The notes beneath the pieces are model-generated. The model made no database searches and was not told the origin of the DNA. It saw only the letters and a program-made list of their open reading frames with translations. This document shows, one piece after another, positions 6,231 through 27,161 of a stretch of 30,146 bases of DNA. The position numbers and the translations under genes are program-made. This DNA is from an uncultured Pseudomonadales bacterium (GTDB lineage: Bacteria > Patescibacteriota > Microgenomatia > UBA1400 > PJMF01), in assembly GCA_964612735.1 (NCBI GenBank), contig CAZTEB010000005.1, positions 4,080 to 34,225 of the forward strand, read 5' to 3'. Numbering within the stretch: the stretch's first letter is position 1; every line of letters begins with the position of its first letter.

Positions 6231-8432
6231 ATGAACATTTCTCTCATCATCACGGTGCTAAACGAAGCAGATTCGCTGGAGGCTTTGTTGGTGAGCGTTG
6301 AAGAACAGCGGCGAAGACCCGATGAAGTGGTGATCGTAGACGGTGGTTCTAGTGATGGGACTTGGGAGCAGTTACAAGCCTGGCAGCAAAAGTGGCAGCG
6401 GCAAAAAACTTCAAAAACGCTCTCAATTCAAGTCGCCCAACAGCACGGCAATCGTAGTGTGGGTCGTAATCACGCTATAGAGCTAGCTAGCTACGATTGG
6501 TTGGCAGTTACTGATGCCGGCTGCGTGTTAGATACTAACTGGCTGCACGAACTCGAGGCGACTGCCAATGCCAATCCAGAAGCTCAAGTGATCGCTGGTT
6601 ACTATCAGGGTGAGGCTGTCACATCTTTTCAACAAGCTGTAGTGCCGTATGCCTTAGTGATGCCAGATCGAGTCGATCCGGAGTCATTTTTGCCGGCTAC
6701 TCGTTCAATGATGCTCCATCGATTGGTGTGGGAGAAGTACGACAGTTTCGACGAGTCATTATCAGATAATGAAGATTATGCACTTGCTCGAGAGCTCAAG
6801 GCTGGTGGGGAAACGATAGTGTTTGCACGACAGGCTGTAGTTTGGTGGCGACCGCCGAGTGATCTACTTTCTTTCTTTTGGATGCTGCTGCGTTTTGCTC
6901 GTGGTGATGCTCAAGCAGGTCTATTTCGCCCCAAGGTCCTACTGCTTTTCTTGAGATATGTGATTGGCGTTGTAACAACTGGAGTTTTGTTTCTAGTAAA
7001 TGTCTGGCTAGCGCTGAGCTTTGTGATTAGTACTAGTAGCTTGTACGCAGGTTGGGCTGTCGTGAAAAATAAACGCTTCGTGCCAAATGGTTGGAGATGG
7101 TTGCCGACGCTGCAACTGGTAAGTGATGGGGCAGTGATGATCGGGACACTCTGGGGCTTGGTGAAACGACGAGCGGGACTTGTATTCATGGCTCTCTTTA
7201 TTCTCAGCTCGATACTCTACTTAGCAGGTGTGATGCGAGTTGGTACCGCTATCTGGGGTGATACCCATTACTACTACGCTTACACTCGGTCGTTGGTGAT
7301 GGATGGCGACATTGATTTTTACAATGAGTCACAGCATCCTGAGTTTGGCTTCCCCAATGGCCAAGTGATTATCGAACAGACCAGTAGAACCGAGAACGTC
7401 TTTTCCCCAGGCGCGCCACTGCTGTGGCTGCCTGGGTTCTTAGTGGGGCGAGCTTTAACCCAAGTGGCAAACGTCGCTGGCGCTACTCTACCAACCGATG
7501 GTTATTCACTACTGACTCAGGTGACTGTTGGTGTGAGTACTGTGTTGATGAGCGTAGCGGGCTTGTGGCTAGTGTATAGGTCACTGCTTACTCTTGGTAA
7601 ACGAAATGGTGATGTGCTTGCACAAAACTCTCAAGCAAGGTGGTTGACTGTCACTACGTTATTGGTAGCTACACCAGTTTTTTTCTACACGGCGCTCGAT
7701 CCTTTTAACTCGCACTCGGCGTCGTTACTGTTGTCATCACTGGCACTGTGGTTGAGCACTCGACTATTGGTCAGTACTACTCATCAGCGCTTGGCATTGT
7801 GGTTGTGTTTGGGGGTGGCGTTGGGATGGTTGGGATTAGTGCGCAATCAAGACATATTGTTGGTGTTGCCGATTGGGTTAGTAATACTGTTTAGAGCATT
7901 GCAGCAGCGATCGGCTTATGAGCTAAAGCAGTTAGTTTTGTTTAGTATCGGAGTTATCTCTATCTTCAGTATTCAGGTAGCTACTACCTACTATCTCTAC
8001 GGTCAGTTTGGGAGCCCCTATACCTTGCGTGGTCAAATGCTAAATTGGGGACAACCTGACATTATTCGTGTGTTGTTCTCGCAGGGAAATGGATTGTTGT
8101 ACTTTGCACCTGCGCTTCTACTTGCTCTGTATGGATTGGTAAAAACAGCACTTCAAAAGAATGAATCACTACTGCGAACGCTAGCTATGGCTGGCCTGTC
8201 ATACTTCTTGCTTGAGCTCTATGTGATCGCCAGCTGGGGACCAGAAATCGTAGGCGGCCCGTATGGTTCAAGGATGTTTATGGGTACACTGCCGTGGCTG
8301 GCGGTAGGATTATTCGCAACCTTAGCGAGCATATGGTCGAAAAAAGCATGGAGATTTTCCACGTTGTTATTGCTTGCTTTGGCAGCAAGTTGGAGCTGGT
8401 GGCAGACAGCTGTGATGCTGATGAGGTACTAA
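6231..8432 (+). CDS. GT2 glycosyltransferase fused to a multi-TM GT-C-like domain
   Basis: N-terminal ISLIITVLNE, IVDGGSSDGT, VTDAGC, NEDY; after about residue 315 GDTHYYYAYTRSLVMDGDIDFYNE and many hydrophobic segments, LVRNQD, YGSRMF. Confidence 0.8.
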   Translation: MNISLIITVLNEADSLEALLVSVEEQRRRPDEVVIVDGGSSDGTWEQLQAWQQKWQRQKTSKTLSIQVAQQHGNRSVGRNHAIELASYDWLAVTDAGCVLDTNWLHELEATANANPEAQVIAGYYQGEAVTSFQQAVVPYALVMPDRVDPESFLPATRSMMLHRLVWEKYDSFDESLSDNEDYALARELKAGGETIVFARQAVVWWRPPSDLLSFFWMLLRFARGDAQAGLFRPKVLLLFLRYVIGVVTTGVLFLVNVWLALSFVISTSSLYAGWAVVKNKRFVPNGWRWLPTLQLVSDGAVMIGTLWGLVKRRAGLVFMALFILSSILYLAGVMRVGTAIWGDTHYYYAYTRSLVMDGDIDFYNESQHPEFGFPNGQVIIEQTSRTENVFSPGAPLLWLPGFLVGRALTQVANVAGATLPTDGYSLLTQVTVGVSTVLMSVAGLWLVYRSLLTLGKRNGDVLAQNSQARWLTVTTLLVATPVFFYTALDPFNSHSASLLLSSLALWLSTRLLVSTTHQRLALWLCLGVALGWLGLVRNQDILLVLPIGLVILFRALQQRSAYELKQLVLFSIGVISIFSIQVATTYYLYGQFGSPYTLRGQMLNWGQPDIIRVLFSQGNGLLYFAPALLLALYGLVKTALQKNESLLRTLAMAGLSYFLLELYVIASWGPEIVGGPYGSRMFMGTLPWLAVGLFATLASIWSKKAWRFSTLLLLALAASWSWWQTAVMLMRY

Positions 8433-10015
8433 TGTCAACAGGTTTGTTTTTAGTTTTTCAGCGCTATGCTTCAAAAATAGCAGTGATCGGCTTTCTGCTC
8501 TTCACCTCACTTTTCTACTTTCAACAACTCAATTTCAACACCTCAGACCTTGGCCGACACATCACTAACGGCCGCGTCATCTTAGAGACAAAGCAGGTGC
8601 TCTCGACTAATTATTACTCTTACACACATCCTGATTTTCCTAGCGTTAATCATCACTGGTTGTTTGGCGTACTAGTGTATCTGATCCATCAGCTTGCTGG
8701 CTTCATAGGAATTACGGTATTTGCCGCAGTACTTGGTGTGACTACCATGGCTTTGTGCCTAGACTTGGCTCGCAGAAAAACAAACTGGAAGTATGCAGTA
8801 CTGGCTGGAGTAGTACTACTGCCGTTGATTACTACTAGGATTGAGCCGAGGCCGGAGTTAGTTAGTTTGCTCGGCGTTAGCTTATTTATATGGCTGCTAG
8901 ATCGCTATGCTAGCAAACACATTTCTTTCACACAGCTGACTACGGCCATAGTTGGTTTTCAGATTTTGTGGGTGAACACTCATCTCTTTTTTATCTTTGG
9001 TCCATTTGTAGTGGGAGCGTGGTGGTTGGAGACTTTTTTTACACACTGGTTAAGTGAGCGGCGTCAGTCATTAGTTCGAGCTTCTGTCTTGTTGGCAGTC
9101 GTTTCGGCAGCTTGTTGTATTCATCCTGCTGGCATCTGGGGAGCGCTGCAGCCACTTCGTATTTTTGAAAACTATGGTTATGAGATTCTTGAGAATCAAA
9201 GCCTGTGGTTTGTAATCCAGAGGCTAGGTCAGCCGGTGTATTGGTATGGGTTACTGTTGGTTGGCTTGAGTACTTTGCTACAGATCGGTACTACTAAGTA
9301 TAAGAACTGGAAAGGTGAAATCAGTGTGGTCGTCTATTTAGTCACTTTTGGAGTGATGACTTTGATGATCAATCGCGCGCTACCATTTTTCGGCGTGATA
9401 GTGTTGCCGATTTTTGCCGTGCACCTAAAGAGATTTTTTGATCGCTATTATCAACAACTACACGTAGTACTTCGATCAGACGTTGGAGCTGCAGTACTAG
9501 GCGTGCTTGGATTTGGTGGTGTTGCTCTTGCTGGTCTGAGTGGCATGTGGTGGCCTTTGGGTTCGAGGTTTGGTTTGGGCCTACTTCCTAGTTCAAGTGC
9601 TTCTGCGGACTTTTTCAAAGACCACAGCATTCAAGGTCTCATCTTTAACAACTACGATATAGGGGGATACCTGATTTATCATCTCTATCCTGACCAAAAG
9701 GTATTCGTAGATAATCGGCCCGAATCCTATCCAGCTGACTTTTTCAGTGATGAGTACATTGCAGCACAAGAAGACGAAGAACGATGGCAACAACTTTTGG
9801 AGCAGCATGATTTTAATGCTATTTACTTTTATCGTCACGATCTGACTCCGTGGGCTCAGCCATTTTTAATCAAGCGTCTTCATGATCCGCTGTGGGTGCC
9901 GGTGTTTGTAGATGCGTACAGTATTATTTTTGTGAAAGACGCCCAGCAAAACCAGCAGTTGATCAAAGAGTTTGAGTTACCCAGCGAGTTGTTTGGAGAA
10001 ACTAGGGTAGAATAG
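8432..10015 (+). CDS. Polytopic membrane protein, putative GT-C-fold glycosyltransferase
   Basis: ATG 8432 overlaps the upstream TAA (TAATG); SDLGRHITNGR, YSYT...NHHWLF, RPEL, WVNTH, C-terminal NNYDIGGYLIY...FVDNR. Confidence 0.7.
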   Translation: MSTGLFLVFQRYASKIAVIGFLLFTSLFYFQQLNFNTSDLGRHITNGRVILETKQVLSTNYYSYTHPDFPSVNHHWLFGVLVYLIHQLAGFIGITVFAAVLGVTTMALCLDLARRKTNWKYAVLAGVVLLPLITTRIEPRPELVSLLGVSLFIWLLDRYASKHISFTQLTTAIVGFQILWVNTHLFFIFGPFVVGAWWLETFFTHWLSERRQSLVRASVLLAVVSAACCIHPAGIWGALQPLRIFENYGYEILENQSLWFVIQRLGQPVYWYGLLLVGLSTLLQIGTTKYKNWKGEISVVVYLVTFGVMTLMINRALPFFGVIVLPIFAVHLKRFFDRYYQQLHVVLRSDVGAAVLGVLGFGGVALAGLSGMWWPLGSRFGLGLLPSSSASADFFKDHSIQGLIFNNYDIGGYLIYHLYPDQKVFVDNRPESYPADFFSDEYIAAQEDEERWQQLLEQHDFNAIYFYRHDLTPWAQPFLIKRLHDPLWVPVFVDAYSIIFVKDAQQNQQLIKEFELPSELFGETRVE

Positions 10016-17444: not shown

Positions 17445-17458
17445 AAATAGCGAGGTAT
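17445..17458 (+). repeat. 14-bp direct repeat, left copy (AAATAGCGAGGTAT)
   Basis: Exact match to 27148-27161; intergenic between DUF4386 and cupin. Confidence 0.6.
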
Positions 17459-17935: not shown

Positions 17936-18508
17936 CTAGTTACTAGTATTAAGCCGAAGTTCTTCAGGCAAGAATTGATCAATTTCTTCATCTGACCAAG
18001 TAAATTCTTCACCGCTAATACTTCCTCTTTTATTAAGCCTCCTCTGAGCCTCTTGGTATTCACTGGGCCCTGTTTGTGGAGATAAATCACTTATTACTTG
18101 GTACTCCCGTTGTAATGAGTCTCTCTTTTCGATAATAGCTTTTTTGGGAATAGCTTGGTTCATTATGTCTGTTATCAATGATCTATATTTGTCTCTTAAA
18201 CCCATATATTTTAGTGCAGAGTTTTTATGCAGCACCATTTTATCCTCATAGCTAAAAGAAAGTTGTATGATTAAGAAGATAATCTCTGCCACACTTAGCC
18301 CCGCTCCTAAGTATGATAACCAAATTTTGTCTGGTTGAGCTGTTTGCACTAAAAGTAAAACTAAAACAACTGAAACTAGTGCTATGTTAACAATTTTAAC
18401 GTAGTATGAATTTTGTGTTTGCTTTTCAGATGCTACTTCATGAACTTTGTGAGTGAATACTGTGTTCGCAAATGTCTGCCTAACTATGGCTAAATTTTGT
18501 AAATCCAT
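17936..18508 (-). CDS. SLATT (SMODS/SLOG-associating 2TM) effector, SLATT_4-like
   Basis: VRQTFANTVFTHKVHE, two TM helices, HKNSALKYMGLRDKY, SPQT, FTWSDEEIDQFLPEELR; ATG 18508 with AAGG upstream, 4 nt after the CD-NTase stop. Confidence 0.85.
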   Translation of the reverse strand: MDLQNLAIVRQTFANTVFTHKVHEVASEKQTQNSYYVKIVNIALVSVVLVLLLVQTAQPDKIWLSYLGAGLSVAEIIFLIIQLSFSYEDKMVLHKNSALKYMGLRDKYRSLITDIMNQAIPKKAIIEKRDSLQREYQVISDLSPQTGPSEYQEAQRRLNKRGSISGEEFTWSDEEIDQFLPEELRLNTSN

Positions 18509-18512
18509 ATCG

Positions 18513-19391
18513 TTAACCTTTAAATTTTGAACCATATATTTCCTGCCACTTACTGTTAGCTGAATATGGCCTGTCTTTTTCTTCATATTCTATAGCCTCA
18601 AGTGAAATGTTGTAACACCTTAATGCTTTATAATCGAAGCTTCCTTTTCTCCAAACGTACTGACTGCTTCCTGGTGCTAACCAATAATTCTGATCTTCAT
18701 TTTGATTTTTAAGAAACTTAAAAAAATCTCTTGTCATGTAATCATAGTAAACATATGATTTATCGTTGTTTTCCCAGTCTAATAAAAAATTATGTGCCAA
18801 AGTATCGATCAGTAAGCCACCAATAGGTACGTTCCATTTATCTTTCCAGCATCTCACCATCCTACATAAATTTTTTAAATTACCACTGTATTTATTATTT
18901 GCTTCTCTAATAGCTTCGATTTCTGGTTTGGGGTCTGTTTTTTTCCAGCTACCTCCATCATGTGTATCGGGATAAGCATACCTGCCGCTTTGATAGAGAA
19001 AACCAGGCACTATTTCAAAACTAACCCCATCTTCAAAGTTAATTTGAACAACTTGTCCATCTCCTTTAATGTGGCTTGTAGAGTAAGTTTTTTTTAGTGA
19101 ATCTCTGACAGCTTGTAAAAGAGCTGATTGTCCATTTCCCAAATGATTGTCGTACTTTTCATATTCTCCCCAGGGCAACTGCATAAGTATGTCGATGTCG
19201 CTGATGTGAATATCGGTATCTCTACCATATGAGCCCACGTAAAGGCTATGACTTGTTTTAGAATCACTATTCCAAAAATCAATATTAAGCTGTTTTGTAA
19301 TTCTGCCGTACCTATAAGAAATATCTTTAACTACTTCCGAATCAATCCTTATGTCATTACAGAATTGTTTAAATTTTGTTGATACACTCAT
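18513..19391 (-). CDS. SMODS/cGAS-DncV-like nucleotidyltransferase (CD-NTase), CBASS cyclase
   Basis: YVGSYGRDTDIHISDIDILMQLP (GS...DxD), GDGQVVQINF, FEIVPGF, YPDT...WKKTDP, LCRMVRCWK, GLLIDTL. Confidence 0.92.
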   Translation of the reverse strand: MSVSTKFKQFCNDIRIDSEVVKDISYRYGRITKQLNIDFWNSDSKTSHSLYVGSYGRDTDIHISDIDILMQLPWGEYEKYDNHLGNGQSALLQAVRDSLKKTYSTSHIKGDGQVVQINFEDGVSFEIVPGFLYQSGRYAYPDTHDGGSWKKTDPKPEIEAIREANNKYSGNLKNLCRMVRCWKDKWNVPIGGLLIDTLAHNFLLDWENNDKSYVYYDYMTRDFFKFLKNQNEDQNYWLAPGSSQYVWRKGSFDYKALRCYNISLEAIEYEEKDRPYSANSKWQEIYGSKFKG

Positions 19392-19428
19392 ACCACTCCT
19401 GAATCATAAAGTCACACAATATAGGGTT

Positions 19429-19962
19429 TTAACTCCCTGACTTTTTTATTTGCTTCAAATACTTAATATTTTCATCCACAAGGTAAACAGTGTGGTATTT
19501 AGCTCCTGCTTTTGTTTTCAAATCTCTTGCCTTAAGTTTACCTTTTCTAACTAATTTTCGTGCTGTTGATGGGTGTAAACCATACTCATCCTTTAACTTC
19601 CAGCTAGAGATAGTATTTTTCCAGTGACAAGCAGATGCTGGTATTACTCCCTGTTCGATATTCCATTGGCAGTCCATACACCTCTGCCCATTTTCATCCC
19701 ACCATGTCTCTGTGCCTGAAATACTCTTGTGACAAATTAGGCAGTTGTAGACACCCTCATGTTCACCGAGGTGAAAGCCTTTGGGGTGATCTTTGAGTTT
19801 CTTTTTTCTCCGAAAATCAATCTGAGCCTGTTCCATTAAAAGTTTGACTAAGCCCACTAAGTTTTCTCCTTGCTCACGCGCTTCTGCATCCGTGAGGACC
19901 TTGCCGTATTCTTTTTTGGCTATTTCTTTGAACTCTTGTATTGCTTCATCTGGTAGAGACAT
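19429..19962 (-). CDS. Hypothetical protein: helical N-terminus, CxxC...CxxC Zn finger, C-terminal excisionase/MerR-like HTH
   Basis: CLIC-17 aa-CMDC; LKDEYGLHPSTARKLVRKGKLKA; ATG overlaps the DUF2188 stop (TAATG). Confidence 0.65.
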   Translation of the reverse strand: MSLPDEAIQEFKEIAKKEYGKVLTDAEAREQGENLVGLVKLLMEQAQIDFRRKKKLKDHPKGFHLGEHEGVYNCLICHKSISGTETWWDENGQRCMDCQWNIEQGVIPASACHWKNTISSWKLKDEYGLHPSTARKLVRKGKLKARDLKTKAGAKYHTVYLVDENIKYLKQIKKSGS

Positions 19963-20201
19963 TAGTGCTTCCTATCTCTTGGTGGGTAGGGATCGTTACC
20001 TGGTTTAACAGTGTCGCTGTCTCGTATTGCACCATCTCTACCGTGGATTCTGACTTCACCACCGCCGGAATTACCTGAGTAAGTTTTTGCTTGCAGTTCA
20101 GCCTCCCTTTGAGTTGAGTGAATGCTACTAGCTTTGTTTGCACCTGCTCTACGAGCGTTCCAAGTGCCATCTTTATTTGGGGTTACGTGGTAGTTTGCCA
20201 T
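19962..20201 (-). CDS. DUF2188 family protein
   Basis: YHVTPNKDGTW, TQREA, EVRIHGRDGAIRDSDT, DPYPPR; AAAGGA RBS before ATG 20201. Confidence 0.85.
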   Translation of the reverse strand: MANYHVTPNKDGTWNARRAGANKASSIHSTQREAELQAKTYSGNSGGGEVRIHGRDGAIRDSDTVKPGNDPYPPRDRKH

Positions 20202-20219
20202 GATGTTCCTTTTGTAATG

Positions 20220-20272
20220 TTTGCTAACTGTAAAGTAGCTTAACATATAATTTAGACTTTGCAAATAGTAAA
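20220..20272. promoter_or_regulatory. Two candidate repressor operators in the divergent promoter region
   Basis: TTTGCTAACTGTAAA (20220-20234) and TTTGCAAATAGTAAA (20258-20272): 12/15 identical, each a near-palindrome TTTGC-N5-GTAAA; TATAAT lies between them at 20246-20251. Confidence 0.6.
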
Positions 20273-20277
20273 CTCAT

Positions 20278-20634
20278 ATGACACAATATAAACATATGAG
20301 CAATGATACAACTTACTCTAGTATTAGCCAATTTATCAAAGATAAGCGTGAGCAAATTGGTATGACTCAAGACGAATTGGCTACAAAGGTTGGAGTTAAA
20401 GCTGCAACAATAAGTCTCTATGAATCAGGCGACAGGAATCCTGATTTAGATAGACTAAAAAAAATTGCTGAAGCATTTGAGATTCCAGTTGCTACACTAC
20501 TAGACATTGAGGTTCCGAAAGAAAATTTGGACATAGCTTTAAGATCTGAGAAACTTAATGCGAAGCAGATTGATGACGTGAAAAGGTACATTCAGCTATT
20601 GAAATATGAACGGCAAACACAAAAGGGTAACTAG
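20278..20634 (+). CDS. XRE/HTH_3 transcriptional repressor (ImmR/CapH-like)
   Basis: IKDKREQIGMTQDELATKVGVKAATISLYESGDRNPDLDRLKKIAEAF. Confidence 0.9.
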   Translation: MTQYKHMSNDTTYSSISQFIKDKREQIGMTQDELATKVGVKAATISLYESGDRNPDLDRLKKIAEAFEIPVATLLDIEVPKENLDIALRSEKLNAKQIDDVKRYIQLLKYERQTQKGN

Positions 20635-21100
20635 AAACCAAATTAGAGCTAAGGTCACAAGGTTGCTTGATGAATGTGGCTTATCATCTCCACCTGTTAA
20701 AATTTCTCACATCATCAAACATTTAGATATCTTTGTTGATAAGGGCTTAACAGATTTTTTGGAGTCAAACAAGATTTCTGCTTTTATCGACCTTGAAGAC
20801 AAAATCATTGAATACAATGATCGGCACCCAACTGTAAGAAAGAGATTCTCAATAGCTCACGAAGTTGGCCATCTTGTTTTAGGTCATTCAGTAAAAAGTG
20901 ACATTTTTAGTTATAGCTCAAGAGATCCTGTGGAAGTTGAAGCTAATATTTTTGCAGCTGAGTTGCTAATGCCTTTTAAGTGGCTGAAGGAAGATTTGAA
21001 AGGTTATGGTGTCAAAATTGATGAACTTGCTTATAAATATTGGGTCAGCAAGGAAGCAATGGGTTGGAGAATTTCGAATAGTGATTCTTTATTAGGTTAA
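20606..21100 (+). CDS. ImmA/IrrE family Zn metallopeptidase (CapP/ImmA-like antirepressor)
   Basis: RKRFSIAHEVGHLVLGH (HExxH), EVEANIFAAELLMP. Confidence 0.9.
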   Translation: MNGKHKRVTRNQIRAKVTRLLDECGLSSPPVKISHIIKHLDIFVDKGLTDFLESNKISAFIDLEDKIIEYNDRHPTVRKRFSIAHEVGHLVLGHSVKSDIFSYSSRDPVEVEANIFAAELLMPFKWLKEDLKGYGVKIDELAYKYWVSKEAMGWRISNSDSLLG

Positions 21101-21132: not shown

Positions 21133-21175
21133 TTGACAAACCCACAATACATATTCTAATATACGAATATGTATT
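21133..21175 (+). promoter_or_regulatory. Promoter and palindromic operator of the copper operon
   Basis: TTGACA(21133)-18 nt-TAATAT(21157), ATG 6 nt later; perfect inverted repeat AATACATATTC-N8-GAATATGTATT at 21146-21175. Confidence 0.75.
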
Positions 21176-21648
21176 CACAGATATTCAAACTACATGCTGA
21201 CCTACTAAAGTCACTTGCACATCCTCGCCGATTAGAGATTATCCACTTACTTCGTAGTCAAGAATTACCTGTTTCTGATATTCATACTATGCTTGATTTG
21301 CCTCAAGCAAATATCAGCCAACATTTGATGGTTCTGCGAGATGCAGGAGTTGTTGTTACTCGCCGTGATGGTAAACAAGTTTTTTATAAGTTGAGCGATA
21401 AGAACATTATCAAAGCCTCCGACTTGCTTCGTAAAGTATTGATTGAGCAACACAAAGATACAGAATTAGCTGATGAGTTCACTCTCAAAATGCAGGAGTT
21501 AGTGCCGTTAGTTCAAGATCCTGTATGTCATATGAGAGTTTCGCCCAAAACCGCTGGCTTCCACCTAGTACATAAAAGACAAGACTACTACTTCTGTGCC
21601 AGTGGATGCTTAACAAAATTCAAAAAGGAGCCTGCCAAGTATGTCTAA
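21169..21648 (+). CDS. ArsR/SmtB regulator fused to a C-terminal YHS/TRASH domain
   Basis: LAHPRRLEII, QANISQHLMVLRDAG, RRDGKQVFY; DPVCHM...YYFCASGCLTKF. Confidence 0.88.
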   Translation: MYSQIFKLHADLLKSLAHPRRLEIIHLLRSQELPVSDIHTMLDLPQANISQHLMVLRDAGVVVTRRDGKQVFYKLSDKNIIKASDLLRKVLIEQHKDTELADEFTLKMQELVPLVQDPVCHMRVSPKTAGFHLVHKRQDYYFCASGCLTKFKKEPAKYV

Positions 21649-25696: not shown

Positions 25697-27153
25697 TCTC
25701 AAAACATACTATTCAGCACTATGTTCCACTGATGATTCTCGCATCTTTCATACTGGGATTTGTAGTAGTAATCACCAAACCATCTTTGTCTTTACCTAAT
25801 CTTACTGAATCGATAACAAACAATCAGATGAAGCCGCAGTTAAAACAAAGTTTTGCTTCTTACTCAGAAGAAATTGAAGAATCTGGTGAAGAAGTTGTTT
25901 TTGATTTAGTGGCAGATGAGTCCACTATTAGTTTATTTGAAGGAGTTGAGACACAAGTTTGGTCGTACAATGGTCAAGTTCCTGGACCAGAGATAAGAGT
26001 GAAATTAGGTCAAAGAGTTACGGTTAACTTTATAAACAATCTTCCGCAACCTACTACTATCCATTGGCATGGGGTACGAGTACCAAATGAAATGGATGGT
26101 GTGCCAGACATCACTCAGGACCCAATACAACCAGGTGATTCATTTACGTACTCATTTGTACCGAAAGATGCAGGAACATTCTGGTTTCATCCTCATGTTA
26201 GAGGAGCAGAGCAAGTGGAAAAGGGTTTATATGGAACTTTGATTGTTGAAGACCCTAGTGAGCCTCAGTTTGATTCAGACACAGTGTTTGTGGTTGATGA
26301 TTGGCGATTGCAACAGAATGGCCAAATAGACCCACGCTTCGTTACAAACCATGATTTAGCTCATGATGGTAGGTGGGGCAATGCTATTACGGTCAATGGT
26401 TCAACAAACAAGCAGGCTTCTTTTTCAGCAGGTGCGAGTAACAGACTTAGGTTTGTTAATACTTCAAATGGTAGAGTGTATCGTCTGGATTTTGGTGGGT
26501 TAGCTAATAATGCTCAAGTAATTGCTGTAGATGGTATGAAGGTGGGTGAGGTTTTTCCAGCACAGGGTTTTGAACTTGCCCCAGGCAATAGAGTTGATGT
26601 TGTTTTACAGATTCCAGATTCCATGGCTCAATCATCATTTACTGTATATGATACTTTTACCCGAAATAGAAATAGTTTATTCAATATAACTATAGGTGAT
26701 TTAACGACCACAACTTTCAGTGGTGATTTGCCTGTTGATAGCTCGTTTCCTGATTGGTCAGAGGCTAATAAACTCAAACCTAATGCTGAATATGTTCTAA
26801 ATGCACGCAGAACTTCTGGCATGGGGATGATGGGTATAGAGTGGACCATCAATGGACAGGCCTATCCGAATGTAAATCCAATCACGCTGAAACACAACGA
26901 AATTCAGAAGATTCGTTTTACAAATAAATCTGCTCGGTTGCACCCCATGCATTTGCACGGTCAGTTCTTCCAAGTTATTGCCAGAAATGGGCAACCAGTT
27001 GATGAACCCTACTGGCGTGATACAGTGCTTTTACACCCGAGAGAAACTGTAGATATTGTATTGCTTCCTTTGGATAAAGGAACATGGGCAAATCATTGTC
27101 ACATTTTAGAGCATGCAGAAGCGGGAATGATGACAGTTGTTGAAGTCAAATAG
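25693..27153 (+). CDS. Multicopper oxidase (three-domain laccase/CueO-like)
   Basis: IHWHG, WFHPH, HPMHLHG, HCHILEHAEAGMM. Confidence 0.93.
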   Translation: MISKHTIQHYVPLMILASFILGFVVVITKPSLSLPNLTESITNNQMKPQLKQSFASYSEEIEESGEEVVFDLVADESTISLFEGVETQVWSYNGQVPGPEIRVKLGQRVTVNFINNLPQPTTIHWHGVRVPNEMDGVPDITQDPIQPGDSFTYSFVPKDAGTFWFHPHVRGAEQVEKGLYGTLIVEDPSEPQFDSDTVFVVDDWRLQQNGQIDPRFVTNHDLAHDGRWGNAITVNGSTNKQASFSAGASNRLRFVNTSNGRVYRLDFGGLANNAQVIAVDGMKVGEVFPAQGFELAPGNRVDVVLQIPDSMAQSSFTVYDTFTRNRNSLFNITIGDLTTTTFSGDLPVDSSFPDWSEANKLKPNAEYVLNARRTSGMGMMGIEWTINGQAYPNVNPITLKHNEIQKIRFTNKSARLHPMHLHGQFFQVIARNGQPVDEPYWRDTVLLHPRETVDIVLLPLDKGTWANHCHILEHAEAGMMTVVEVK

Positions 27154-27161
27154 CGAGGTAT
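27148..27161 (+). repeat. 14-bp direct repeat, right copy (AAATAGCGAGGTAT)
   Basis: Exact match to 17445-17458; overlaps the last codon and stop of the multicopper oxidase. Confidence 0.6.

Follow-up and report, generated by a model that had tools for sequence, protein, structure and literature searches.

The six genes described here lie in a window of 30,146 nucleotides (the whole stretch of DNA that was analysed) from an uncultured CPR-type bacterium. They raise the question of what a CBASS operon with two additional genes, encoding a DUF2188 protein and a Zn-finger/HTH protein, represents when it stands behind a divergent pair of XRE repressor and M78 peptidase genes. The first-pass annotation had offered two answers: a CBASS of a new subtype, with two ancillary genes not recognised as standard Cap proteins, or a CBASS inserted behind the induction promoter of a mobile element. 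Matching of open reading frames recovered all six genes, as follows.

17936..18508, minus strand: SLATT effector, 190 aa, two transmembrane helices, SLATT_4 family
18513..19391, minus strand: CD-NTase of the SMODS family, 292 aa
19392..19428, minus strand: intergenic spacer, 37 bp, behind the Zn-finger/HTH gene and ahead of the cyclase gene, with AGGAG before the ATG
19429..19962, minus strand: Zn-finger/HTH protein, uncharacterised, 177 aa
19962..20201, minus strand: DUF2188 protein, 79 aa, encoded at the head of the putatively regulated operon
20202..20277, no strand: divergent control region, 76 bp
20278..20634, plus strand: XRE-family repressor, CapH/ImmR-like, 118 aa
20606..21100, plus strand: M78 (HExxH) metallopeptidase, single-domain, ImmA-like, 164 aa

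All family calls of the first-pass annotation were backed by profile searches, and its reading of the gene junctions held as well: CACTAATGTCT is the DUF2188 stop overlapping the Zn-finger/HTH start (the TAATG coupling), 37 bp precede the cyclase ATG and 4 bp separate the cyclase and SLATT genes. On the other strand, the XRE and peptidase genes overlap by 29 nt and are followed by ArsR-YHS and copA. The host genome, 895 kb at 95% completeness, and those of its relatives (0.7–1.5 Mb) fit the CPR host that had been suspected; among 40 relatives, no CBASS was found, bar one weak match. Among sequencing runs, the source DNA run alone was found to contain this sequence. The GC content is 0.35–0.39 across the locus, as compared with 0.45–0.50 in the flanks. 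The locus is probably a mosaic, put together from four modules that can be told apart: the switch, the DUF2188 gene, the Zn-finger/HTH gene and the CD-NTase + SLATT_4 cassette.

Judging from its sequence, the core appears to be an ordinary, self-contained two-gene type I CBASS, an anti-phage suicide system. The CD-NTase matches the PADLOC cyclase profile PDLC00786 over its full length (4.1e-137, 1–291) and Pfam SMODS (1.7e-48), and its translation carries the GS...DxD active-site motif GSYGRDTDIHISDIDIL; the nearest solved structures are 6p8u and 6p82 (2e-9). The adjacent effector matches SLATT_4 in Pfam (9.9e-32) and NCBIfam (7.3e-35) as well as the PADLOC 2TM effector PDLC00696 (1.5e-39), so that the initial type I call is borne out on both sides. 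Neither Cap2/Cap3 nor HORMA/Trip13 nor any other ancillary signalling gene was matched among the six proteins in PADLOC and Pfam. An effector start at 18508, on the ATG 4 bp past the cyclase stop, yields a protein of 190 aa and matches the partners of the closest cyclases, which measure 188–190 aa in three of four contexts; if it began at an upstream ATG, at 18586, the effector gene would share 74 nt with the cyclase gene. Upon phage infection, the cyclase would be expected to make a cyclic oligonucleotide that opens the 2TM effector and leads to cell death. More than 7,600 homologues of the CD-NTase were found at E<1e-30, the best at 65–76% identity. The four closest CD-NTase + SLATT_4 contexts (70–75% identity) are bare two-gene cassettes within type I/II restriction-modification operons, and the other four genes of our locus are absent from all of them. 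Since the closest pairs are thus free cassettes, the locus is better described as a mosaic than as a new CBASS subtype.

The divergent genes are, as proposed, a pair of the CapH/CapP or ImmR-ImmA kind. The repressor matches HTH_3 (4.8e-18) and PADLOC capH (6e-11, over positions 11–100 of the 103 in the profile), while the peptidase matches Peptidase_M78 (3.7e-21, ending at residue 157) and PADLOC capP (1.8e-24, only over positions 3–152 of 242); comparison with the PDB gave weak matches to IrrE and CapP, confined to the peptidase domain. The peptidase possesses an AHEVGH motif, and its sole cysteine, residue 24, lies before HEVGH, with none after. Accordingly, the cysteine-switch loop that runs from HExxH to the third zinc ligand in about a third of CapP proteins is not present, nor does this 164-aa protein have the three domains of CapP (peptidase, HTH-like linker and C-terminal GAF). 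Because it consists of a single domain and, unlike canonical CapP, has neither a GAF domain nor a cysteine switch, we regard it as ImmA-like. Moreover, CapP and IrrE owe their ssDNA groove to the GAF domain, and the inducing signal of CapP can therefore not be transferred to the present enzyme. How such a minimal peptidase, unable to sense ssDNA in the manner of CapP or IrrE, is triggered in a reduced genome becomes a question in its own right; the host genome does encode RecA.

The control region holds two 15-mers of the form TTTGC-N5-GTAAA and a palindrome, TTTGCAAA, which we consider putative operators. It can be aligned almost base for base with that of the nearest relative, L039, in which both 15-mer positions are kept with one or two changes each. 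The repressor gene and a presumably co-transcribed peptidase gene would be read away from these 76 bp; by analogy with their families, the repressor would silence the minus-strand promoter until the peptidase, under stress or DNA damage, is able to cut the repressor.

The first gene behind this switch encodes a clear member of its family (Pfam DUF2188, 5.4e-20; PADLOC PDC-S16, 3.6e-23; PHROG 3220), present in a single copy in the host genome. Across 22 aligned homologues, the N-x-GGGE core of its GNSGGGE motif does not vary at all, and the PGNDPxPPxD tail at the C terminus hardly does. DUF2188 has been linked to 5JN6 and HicB (PMC13621843); this link was not reproduced here, the beta-beta-beta-alpha-beta-beta order of our model being only compatible with it. 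Neither Foldseek of the model against the PDB nor a profile search of PDB sequences with the family returned a significant match, and a predicted complex with the genome's own RecA spoke neither for nor against a DinI-like SOS modulator. Burroughs and Aravind, in 2020, were reportedly the first to link DUF2188 to defence.

In the loci that we compared, the constant company of DUF2188 is a repressor. A LexA-like repressor adjoins it in at least 12 metagenome loci and in 8 of 21 genome loci, and this LexA-like gene is a second paralogue rather than the best-scoring LexA of its genome. XRE/M78 genes adjoin it in at least five metagenome loci; among the 21 genome loci, two have an XRE gene, one of them with M78. 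Together with the present locus, the XRE/M78 arrangement is seen in L039, L049, L057, L061 and L109. What lies behind DUF2188 varies. The gene leads straight into CBASS genes in L047, L048 and L057, does so in L042 and L070 with SAVED effectors, and in L090, where a divergent LexA-like gene faces it, is followed by CD-NTase, HORMA, AAA and CARF-like genes, i.e. a type III CBASS. Elsewhere the cargo consists of MBL-fold, TIR, ResIII-helicase and further genes; the MBL-fold genes have no detectable kinship with the Apyc1-like gene of L003. DUF2188 is thus not a new Cap protein; it is a recurrent first gene behind damage-type switches, shared by CBASS of types I and III and by other cargo. Nearly always it comes first, whether the switch is XRE + M78 or an extra, presumably self-cleaving LexA-like paralogue. 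That it is strongly conserved whatever type of repressor adjoins it suggests that its target is a conserved cellular one, not the cargo.

The Zn-finger/HTH protein belongs to an uncharacterised CPR/phage family and is the one unstudied part of the locus. Searches of Pfam, NCBIfam, PHROGs and PADLOC assign it to no family, HTH_17 being matched only below threshold (0.005). The AF2 model (pLDDT 90) comprises an N-terminal helical hairpin, a CxxC-x17-CxxC zinc ribbon, whose cysteines C74, C77, C95 and C98 are invariant across 30 homologues, and a C-terminal winged helix of the Xis/MerR type. Residues 114–173 superpose on excisionases and on BldC/MerR domains at Z 5.0–5.7, a range typical of common small folds; Foldseek against the PDB yielded nothing significant, and a family profile found no match among PDB sequences. 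With a cut-off of E<=1e-3 the family comprises 1,330 representatives, and with one of <=1e-30 it shrinks to 147; a scan of viral contigs added a single distant relative. In 24 other non-redundant loci the neighbours are varied and include HEPN_AbiV, Hypoth_Ymh, DUF4238, DUF5677, SLFN_AlbA_2, a UvrD-like helicase, pAgo and PDC candidates. The module is also fused to unrelated enzymes, peptidases and kinases among them; for the N-terminal 350 aa of recurrent fusions of ~540 aa, no named relative was found in the Atlas. Zn-finger genes are enriched near LexA-like repressors and DUF2188, and may on this account be more than passengers. Most likely, the protein is a regulator that binds DNA and moves about in the company of genes from defence systems and mobile elements.

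Comparison with L039 bears directly on its place in the operon. The two loci share the ImmA-like peptidase (77% identity), the XRE repressor (72%), DUF2188 (90%) and the CD-NTase (77%). In L039, the cyclase ATG lies 13 nt past the DUF2188 stop, with neither the Zn-finger gene nor the 37-bp spacer in between, and the Zn-finger gene is likewise absent from every other DUF2188–CD-NTase locus that was found. The gene is therefore an indel, an optional insert in the operon, and should be dispensable for CBASS. In this lineage, a zinc-ribbon and winged-helix gene may have been inserted between DUF2188 and the cyclase; the direction, insertion here as opposed to loss in L039, is read from outgroup loci and not from a rooted tree. 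The spacer contains a weak promoter-like match, TTAAAA-18-TATGAT (9/12), so the cyclase could own a promoter; such matches are not commoner than in shuffled sequence (12 found, 11.8 expected). A 10-mer, ACACAATATA, common to the spacer and the start of the XRE gene looks like chance.

Several other readings deserve to be weighed against the mosaic. The likeliest of them, which we nevertheless find rather doubtful, is that the Zn-finger/HTH protein, once derepressed by the switch, acts as a second-tier positive regulator and works like AlpA, either as an activator or as an antiterminator. Its C-terminal domain is of the Xis/MerR/HTH_17 type, a fold to which AlpA presumably also belongs, although the structural Z of 5–5.7 would suit many common small folds. 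In half of the 24 other loci, the Zn-finger gene is followed directly, in the same orientation, by a single gene of toxic type (AbiV-HEPN, Ymh, DUF4238 and SLFN are examples), but in about eight loci it stands alone or converges on the next gene. A LexA-like gene directly adjoins the Zn-finger gene in L033 and L139, and the protein remains 40–60% identical despite its changing neighbours, which fits DNA or RNA polymerase, for instance, as its target rather than the cargo. The cascade from the autocleaving repressor AlpR through AlpA to the alpBCDE lysis genes is established (PMC7969949). If the parallel were to hold, the protein would let RNA polymerase into lethal genes and provide a two-step safety catch for CBASS and for the other suicide-type genes that it precedes elsewhere. 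However, L039 and five other DUF2188–cyclase loci do without the gene, and the coding strand of the spacer holds no convincing terminator.

It strikes us as unlikely that the six genes are what is left of an ImmR/ImmA-Xis switch from an integrative element, with the Zn-finger/HTH protein as recombination directionality factor and the CBASS as cargo picked up behind Pxis. Such an origin would account for a single-domain ImmA-type peptidase and XRE repressor divergent from an operon with an Xis-fold protein, for the low-GC block at about 18–26 kb and for a direct repeat of 14 bp, with identical copies at 17445 and 27148, beside a tRNA-Ser. Yet the window contains no integrase or recombinase that could be found, and the peptidase gene is succeeded by ArsR and copA rather than by int. 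Of the 24 other loci, five have a large serine recombinase no more than 6 kb away from the Zn-finger gene; the remaining 19 have no recombinase nearby. L039 and many defence contexts also possess the switch and DUF2188 but no Zn-finger gene, and fusion to peptidases and kinases is unlike an excisionase. Somewhat less probable still is the new subtype, in which DUF2188, the Zn-finger protein or both would be true ancillary CBASS components such as a sensor or cyclase regulator. The two genes are translationally coupled here, DUF2188 stands directly ahead of CBASS genes in at least seven other loci (types I and III, SAVED effectors), and a DUF2188 gene flanks the studied Pa011 CBASS, too. But DUF2188 stands equally ahead of the MBL-fold, TIR and ResIII-helicase genes, with a cyclase downstream in only one of the 21 loci of the unbiased genome sample, and what accompanies it throughout is the repressor rather than the cargo. 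Both genes are missing from the closest cyclase–effector pairs, and the Zn-finger gene precedes a cyclase in this window only, being convergent in L022, the other CBASS-near locus. The upstream genes had been expected to track with CD-NTases rather than with unrelated cargo alone: DUF2188 and the switch do recur with CD-NTases, and the Zn-finger gene, missing from L039 and found beside unrelated genes in 24 loci, failed this check and its proposed role as an ancillary CBASS gene. Of the two original answers, a CBASS behind a mobile, inducible promoter module is the better fitting one, as the module occurs with other cargo.

The mosaic reading implies that CPR immune operons are built from interchangeable parts: a damage-type switch, DUF2188, optional DNA-binding genes and free-standing effector cassettes. 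The locus adds little to CBASS biology itself; the Zn-finger/HTH family, about 1,300 unannotated sequence clusters with a confident fold, is a defined candidate, open to testing, for a class of regulators new to defence islands. One may speculate, at rather long odds, that these proteins are CPR/phage-restricted second-tier regulators, made only once a damage-type repressor (XRE + ImmA or LexA-like) has been cleaved, that license the transcription of lethal defence cargo as AlpA does. If so, suicide-type immunity in ultra-small bacteria would be governed by a portable hub made up of the Zn-finger protein and DUF2188.

Among known systems, the cassette resembles the two-gene SMODS + SLATT systems of type I CBASS that are among those described by Burroughs et al. 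(2015) and Millman et al. (2020): only a few bases separate the CD-NTase gene from that of the 2TM SLATT_4 effector behind it, and Cap2/Cap3, HORMA/Trip13 and other ancillary Cap genes are absent. Its closest counterparts sit in restriction-modification operons without a dedicated regulator, whereas the cassette here is apparently wired to a stress switch. The likeness to the AlpR-AlpA-alpBCDE programmed cell death of P. aeruginosa (PMC7969949, PMC9371919) is one of wiring only (cleavable repressor, small DNA-binding protein, killing genes); AlpA lacks a zinc ribbon, no sequence relationship to the Zn-finger/HTH protein came to light, and an antiterminator role would be hypothetical. The ImmR/ImmA pairs of ICEBs1 and of phage phi105-type switches likewise have an XRE repressor in one operon with a single-domain M78 protease, an anti-repressor of about 165–170 aa, divergent from an operon with an Xis-fold protein. 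In contrast to these elements, our locus shows neither an integrase gene behind that of the protease nor any genes for conjugation or of phages, its first divergent gene encodes DUF2188 instead of an excisionase, and its Xis-fold protein carries an extra helical hairpin and zinc ribbon and is dispensed with in L039. With CapH/CapP-regulated CBASS it shares an HTH repressor and an HExxH zinc peptidase encoded upstream of the immune operon, on the opposite strand. It differs in the additional Zn-finger/HTH gene, in the CPR-type host and in its peptidase, since CapP, with linker and GAF, measures about 290 aa and has the inter-domain ssDNA groove. The published CapH/CapP set includes CBASS with 2TM effectors and DUF2188-first operons (Lau et al. 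2022, bioRxiv 10.1101/2022.04.27.489752), so that DUF2188 behind such pairs is already published in part, and CapH/CapP-regulated CBASS are also reported by Calloji et al. 2026 (bioRxiv 10.64898/2026.05.16.725639). A CBASS behind a portable repressor/protease switch and DUF2188 is therefore an arrangement of a known kind.

The locus at 17936–21100 places a standard type I CBASS behind a damage switch of a known kind and the DUF2188 gene that usually accompanies such switches. It departs from the pattern in two real respects: its peptidase is of a minimal ImmA type rather than CapP, and a gene of an unstudied Zn-ribbon/Xis-fold family has been inserted. The identities of the genes and the modularity of the locus are established. 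Four genes form a putative minus-strand operon, from which the XRE repressor and the peptidase diverge.

Genes of the locus, with best profile matches
20201..19962, minus strand: DUF2188 protein, 79 aa from ATG (Pfam 5.4e-20; PADLOC PDC-S16 3.6e-23)
19962..19429, minus strand: Zn-finger/HTH protein, 177 aa (sub-threshold HTH_17 match only)
19391..18513, minus strand: CD-NTase (nucleotidyltransferase), 292 aa (SMODS 1.7e-48; PADLOC oligonucleotide cyclase 4.1e-137, end to end)
18508..17936, minus strand: membrane effector, 190 aa (SLATT_4 9.9e-32; PADLOC 2TM effector 1.5e-39)
20278..20634, plus strand: XRE protein, 118 aa (HTH_3 4.8e-18; capH 6e-11)
20606..21100, plus strand: HExxH peptidase, 164 aa (Peptidase_M78 3.7e-21; capP 1.8e-24)

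The layout proposed in the first-pass annotation agrees with the open reading frames in the positions of all six genes, the TAATG overlap coupling DUF2188 to the Zn-finger/HTH gene, the 37-bp spacer before the cyclase and the 4-bp gap before the effector, all of which are visible in the sequence. Its family calls for the CD-NTase, SLATT, DUF2188, XRE and peptidase proteins are supported by profile searches (Pfam, PADLOC); for the Zn-finger/HTH protein, no family was found in Pfam, NCBIfam, PHROGs or PADLOC, the sub-threshold HTH_17 match aside. The CPR host that it suggested fits the genome, which is 895 kb long at 95% completeness and has relatives of 0.7–1.5 Mb. RecA and one LexA are encoded elsewhere in this genome.

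Sequence comparison places the cyclase in a well-conserved family of very large size (>7,600 proteins at E<1e-30; best 65–76% identity). In all four of the closest cyclases inspected, a SLATT_4 protein of 188–204 aa follows within a few bases; each pair lies inside a restriction-modification operon, of type I or type II, and no XRE, peptidase, DUF2188 or Zn-finger gene accompanies any of the four. Accordingly, CD-NTase plus SLATT_4 makes up a type I CBASS module that is complete in itself and mobile between operons, and other defence operons seem to serve as its landing sites. The closest pairs in restriction operons (loci L037, 2629–4078, and L038, 5001–6452) lie between hsdM/hsdS and hsdR (type I) or downstream of an MvaI/BcnI enzyme (type II).

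Scanning metagenomes with DUF2188 as the anchor gave 41 loci. The closest, the 1.5-kb contig L039, encodes the peptidase (77% identity), XRE protein (72%), DUF2188 (90%) and cyclase (77%) and has, between XRE and DUF2188, a control region nearly identical to that of the window, but its cyclase starts 13 nt after the DUF2188 stop and the Zn-finger gene is missing. Thus, the tracking of the upstream genes with CD-NTases, a point raised at first pass, holds for the switch and DUF2188, which recur with the cyclase in L039, but not for the Zn-finger gene. At least ten further loci have a LexA-type repressor of ~208 aa (LexA_DNA_bind plus Peptidase_S24) immediately upstream of DUF2188 on the same strand; in others (L033, L051 and L087) it is divergent, and in L049, L057 and L061 DUF2188 has an XRE and/or M78 gene beside it. 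The gene immediately after DUF2188 encodes an SMODS cyclase in 4 of the 27 loci scanned and a SAVED effector in two; elsewhere it encodes AGS_C, Cap15 receptor domain, TIR or MBL-fold proteins, a ResIII helicase or ThiF. One locus, from a genome of the host's order (L090; G037:C10, 5249–9703), in which a LexA-like gene diverges from DUF2188 followed by an SMODS CD-NTase, a bacterial HORMA protein, an AAA ATPase and a CARF_Card1-like protein of 263 aa, is a type III CBASS led by DUF2188. An XRE gene lies just beyond its LexA-like gene.

Of 400 genomes sampled without bias from the phylum, 17 contained DUF2188. A LexA-like gene adjoins it in 8 of the 21 loci and an XRE gene in two, one of them with M78; a cyclase lies downstream in only one. 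The constant pairing is therefore that of a repressor with DUF2188, and the cargo is swappable. Each of the five genomes checked (G037, G370, G049, G436, G105) encodes two full-length LexA-type repressors, the better-scoring one located away from DUF2188 and the lower-scoring one, a second paralogue, adjoining it. These adjacent paralogues have the look of additional SOS-type repressors carried on islands. Irrespective of which repressor or cargo adjoins it, the DUF2188 subfamily (22 homologues aligned; window 19962–20201) keeps an invariant N-x-GGGE core of its GNSGGGE motif and a near-invariant C-terminal tail, PGNDPxPPxD, which points to a ligand or host partner that is itself conserved. 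Lau et al. 2022 (bioRxiv 10.1101/2022.04.27.489752) have already catalogued DUF2188 operons preceded by CapH/CapP-like pairs and cite Burroughs & Aravind 2020 for the same DUF2188 link; the studied Pa011 CBASS is also flanked by a DUF2188 gene.

The 30 close homologues of the Zn-finger/HTH protein, all unnamed and mostly from CPR metagenomes, have in common four invariant cysteines and a conserved KGFHL motif. An exhaustive profile search yielded 1,330 cluster representatives at E<=1e-3 (147 at <=1e-30), placed by Atlas in CPR phyla and phages. The AlphaFold model (pLDDT 90) consists of a helical hairpin, a zinc ribbon and a winged helix. Foldseek found no solved relative, and AlphaFold DB holds only unnamed family members, longer fusions among them. 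With an independent aligner, residues 114–173 superpose on the GIsul2 excisionase, Pukovnik Xis, BldC and MerR N-domains (Z 5.0–5.7, ~53 residues, rmsd 2.0–2.3 Å), modest scores that agree with the weak HTH_17 match. The module is also fused to Peptidase_S51, AAA_18-type kinases and extra zinc ribbons (among P0031, P0041, P0089, P0113 and P0153, representatives from the profile search). In a recurrent fusion of ~540 aa, the part N-terminal to the module bears several additional CxxC zinc ribbons and matches no known family.

Among 24 other non-redundant loci, the Zn-finger/HTH gene lies tightly upstream of varied co-directional genes in 12 (HEPN_AbiV, Hypoth_Ymh, DUF4238, DUF5677, SLFN_AlbA_2/ATPase, UvrD-like helicase and unknowns), often where a type I restriction array ends, and is alone or convergent with the next gene in about eight. 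Neighbours match pAgo, PDC-S53, PDC-S68, PDC-S33, DUF4238-Pers, GajB-like and type IV restriction models; CBASS is near only once, in L022, where it is convergent. DUF2188 occurs within ~2 kb in L025, L033, L051 and L113. A LexA-like gene lies within 6 kb in 7 of the 24 loci; in the phylum sample, 3 of 23 loci have one within 1.5 kb. In both sampled genomes that contain DUF2188 and the Zn-finger/HTH gene (G370, G414), the two lie <=5 kb apart. Hence, the gene is not CBASS-specific, yet it belongs to the neighbourhood network of damage switches; it is enriched near the switch module and is not a random passenger. L003 is a prophage-like contig with a terminase; at 7373–8984, a 45-aa ORF and an Anti-Pycsar Apyc1-type MBL gene stand divergent from the gene of a LexA-like repressor, and a Zn-finger/HTH gene lies ~0.8 kb away.

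Directly after the peptidase gene in the window, an ArsR-family HTH fused to a YHS/TRASH metal-binding domain (21169–21648) heads a copA/DsbD-cupredoxin/multicopper-oxidase cluster. An exact 14-bp direct repeat, AAATAGCGAGGTAT, at 17445–17458 and 27148–27161, brackets a cupin gene, the CBASS locus and the entire copper-resistance cluster, with ~110 bp between its second copy and tRNA-Ser(cga). By chance, the two stretches that were compared should yield about 0.02 matches of this kind. A cyclase homologue was not found in 40 relatives of the host, one weak match excepted.

The best-supported mechanism, each regulatory step of which we infer from family knowledge, is an XRE/peptidase-switched CBASS. 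The XRE protein would repress the minus-strand promoter via conserved repeats in 20202–20277 until the ImmA-like peptidase cleaves it in response to a stress signal; DUF2188 and the genes for the Zn-finger protein, cyclase and effector would then be transcribed together. To make the cyclic oligonucleotide that would open the SLATT pore, the cyclase would still depend on a phage cue of its own. For the Zn-finger/HTH protein, a role as a DNA-binding regulator is favoured. More specifically, it might form a second regulatory tier comparable to AlpA of Pseudomonas, where alpA is derepressed once AlpR has cleaved itself and the AlpA protein enables polymerase to read through into lysis genes (PMC7969949). 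Conservation of the protein while the cargo changes, its position before suicide-type genes and its linkage to LexA-like repressors would suit such a role, which nevertheless appears doubtful given that L039 does without the protein and that the 37-bp spacer has no clear terminator.

Alternatively, the locus may be the relic of an ImmR/ImmA-Xis switch of an integrative element. The repeats at 17445 and 27148 beside the tRNA gene and the low GC of the locus (0.35–0.39 vs 0.45–0.50 in the flanks) point in this direction, as do recombinases near some Zn-finger/HTH relatives (a large serine recombinase <=6 kb away in 5 of the 24 other loci, none near the gene in the window). However, no integrase is present between the repeats or elsewhere in the window, and the Zn-finger/HTH module is fused to enzymes elsewhere. 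This origin is improbable. The first-pass annotation had also considered a true new CBASS subtype; this is made unlikely by the separability of the CBASS cassette, the switch with DUF2188 and the Zn-finger gene.

The XRE/peptidase-switched CBASS differs from CapH/CapP systems in its peptidase. The 164-aa protein lacks the architecture of CapP: it matches the capP profile only over 3–152 of 242, and its sole cysteine precedes the HEVGH motif. It is thus ImmA-like, not a canonical CapP, and ssDNA cannot be assumed as the inducing signal. What the XRE and peptidase switch of the window shares with both CapH/CapP and ImmR/ImmA is its layout.
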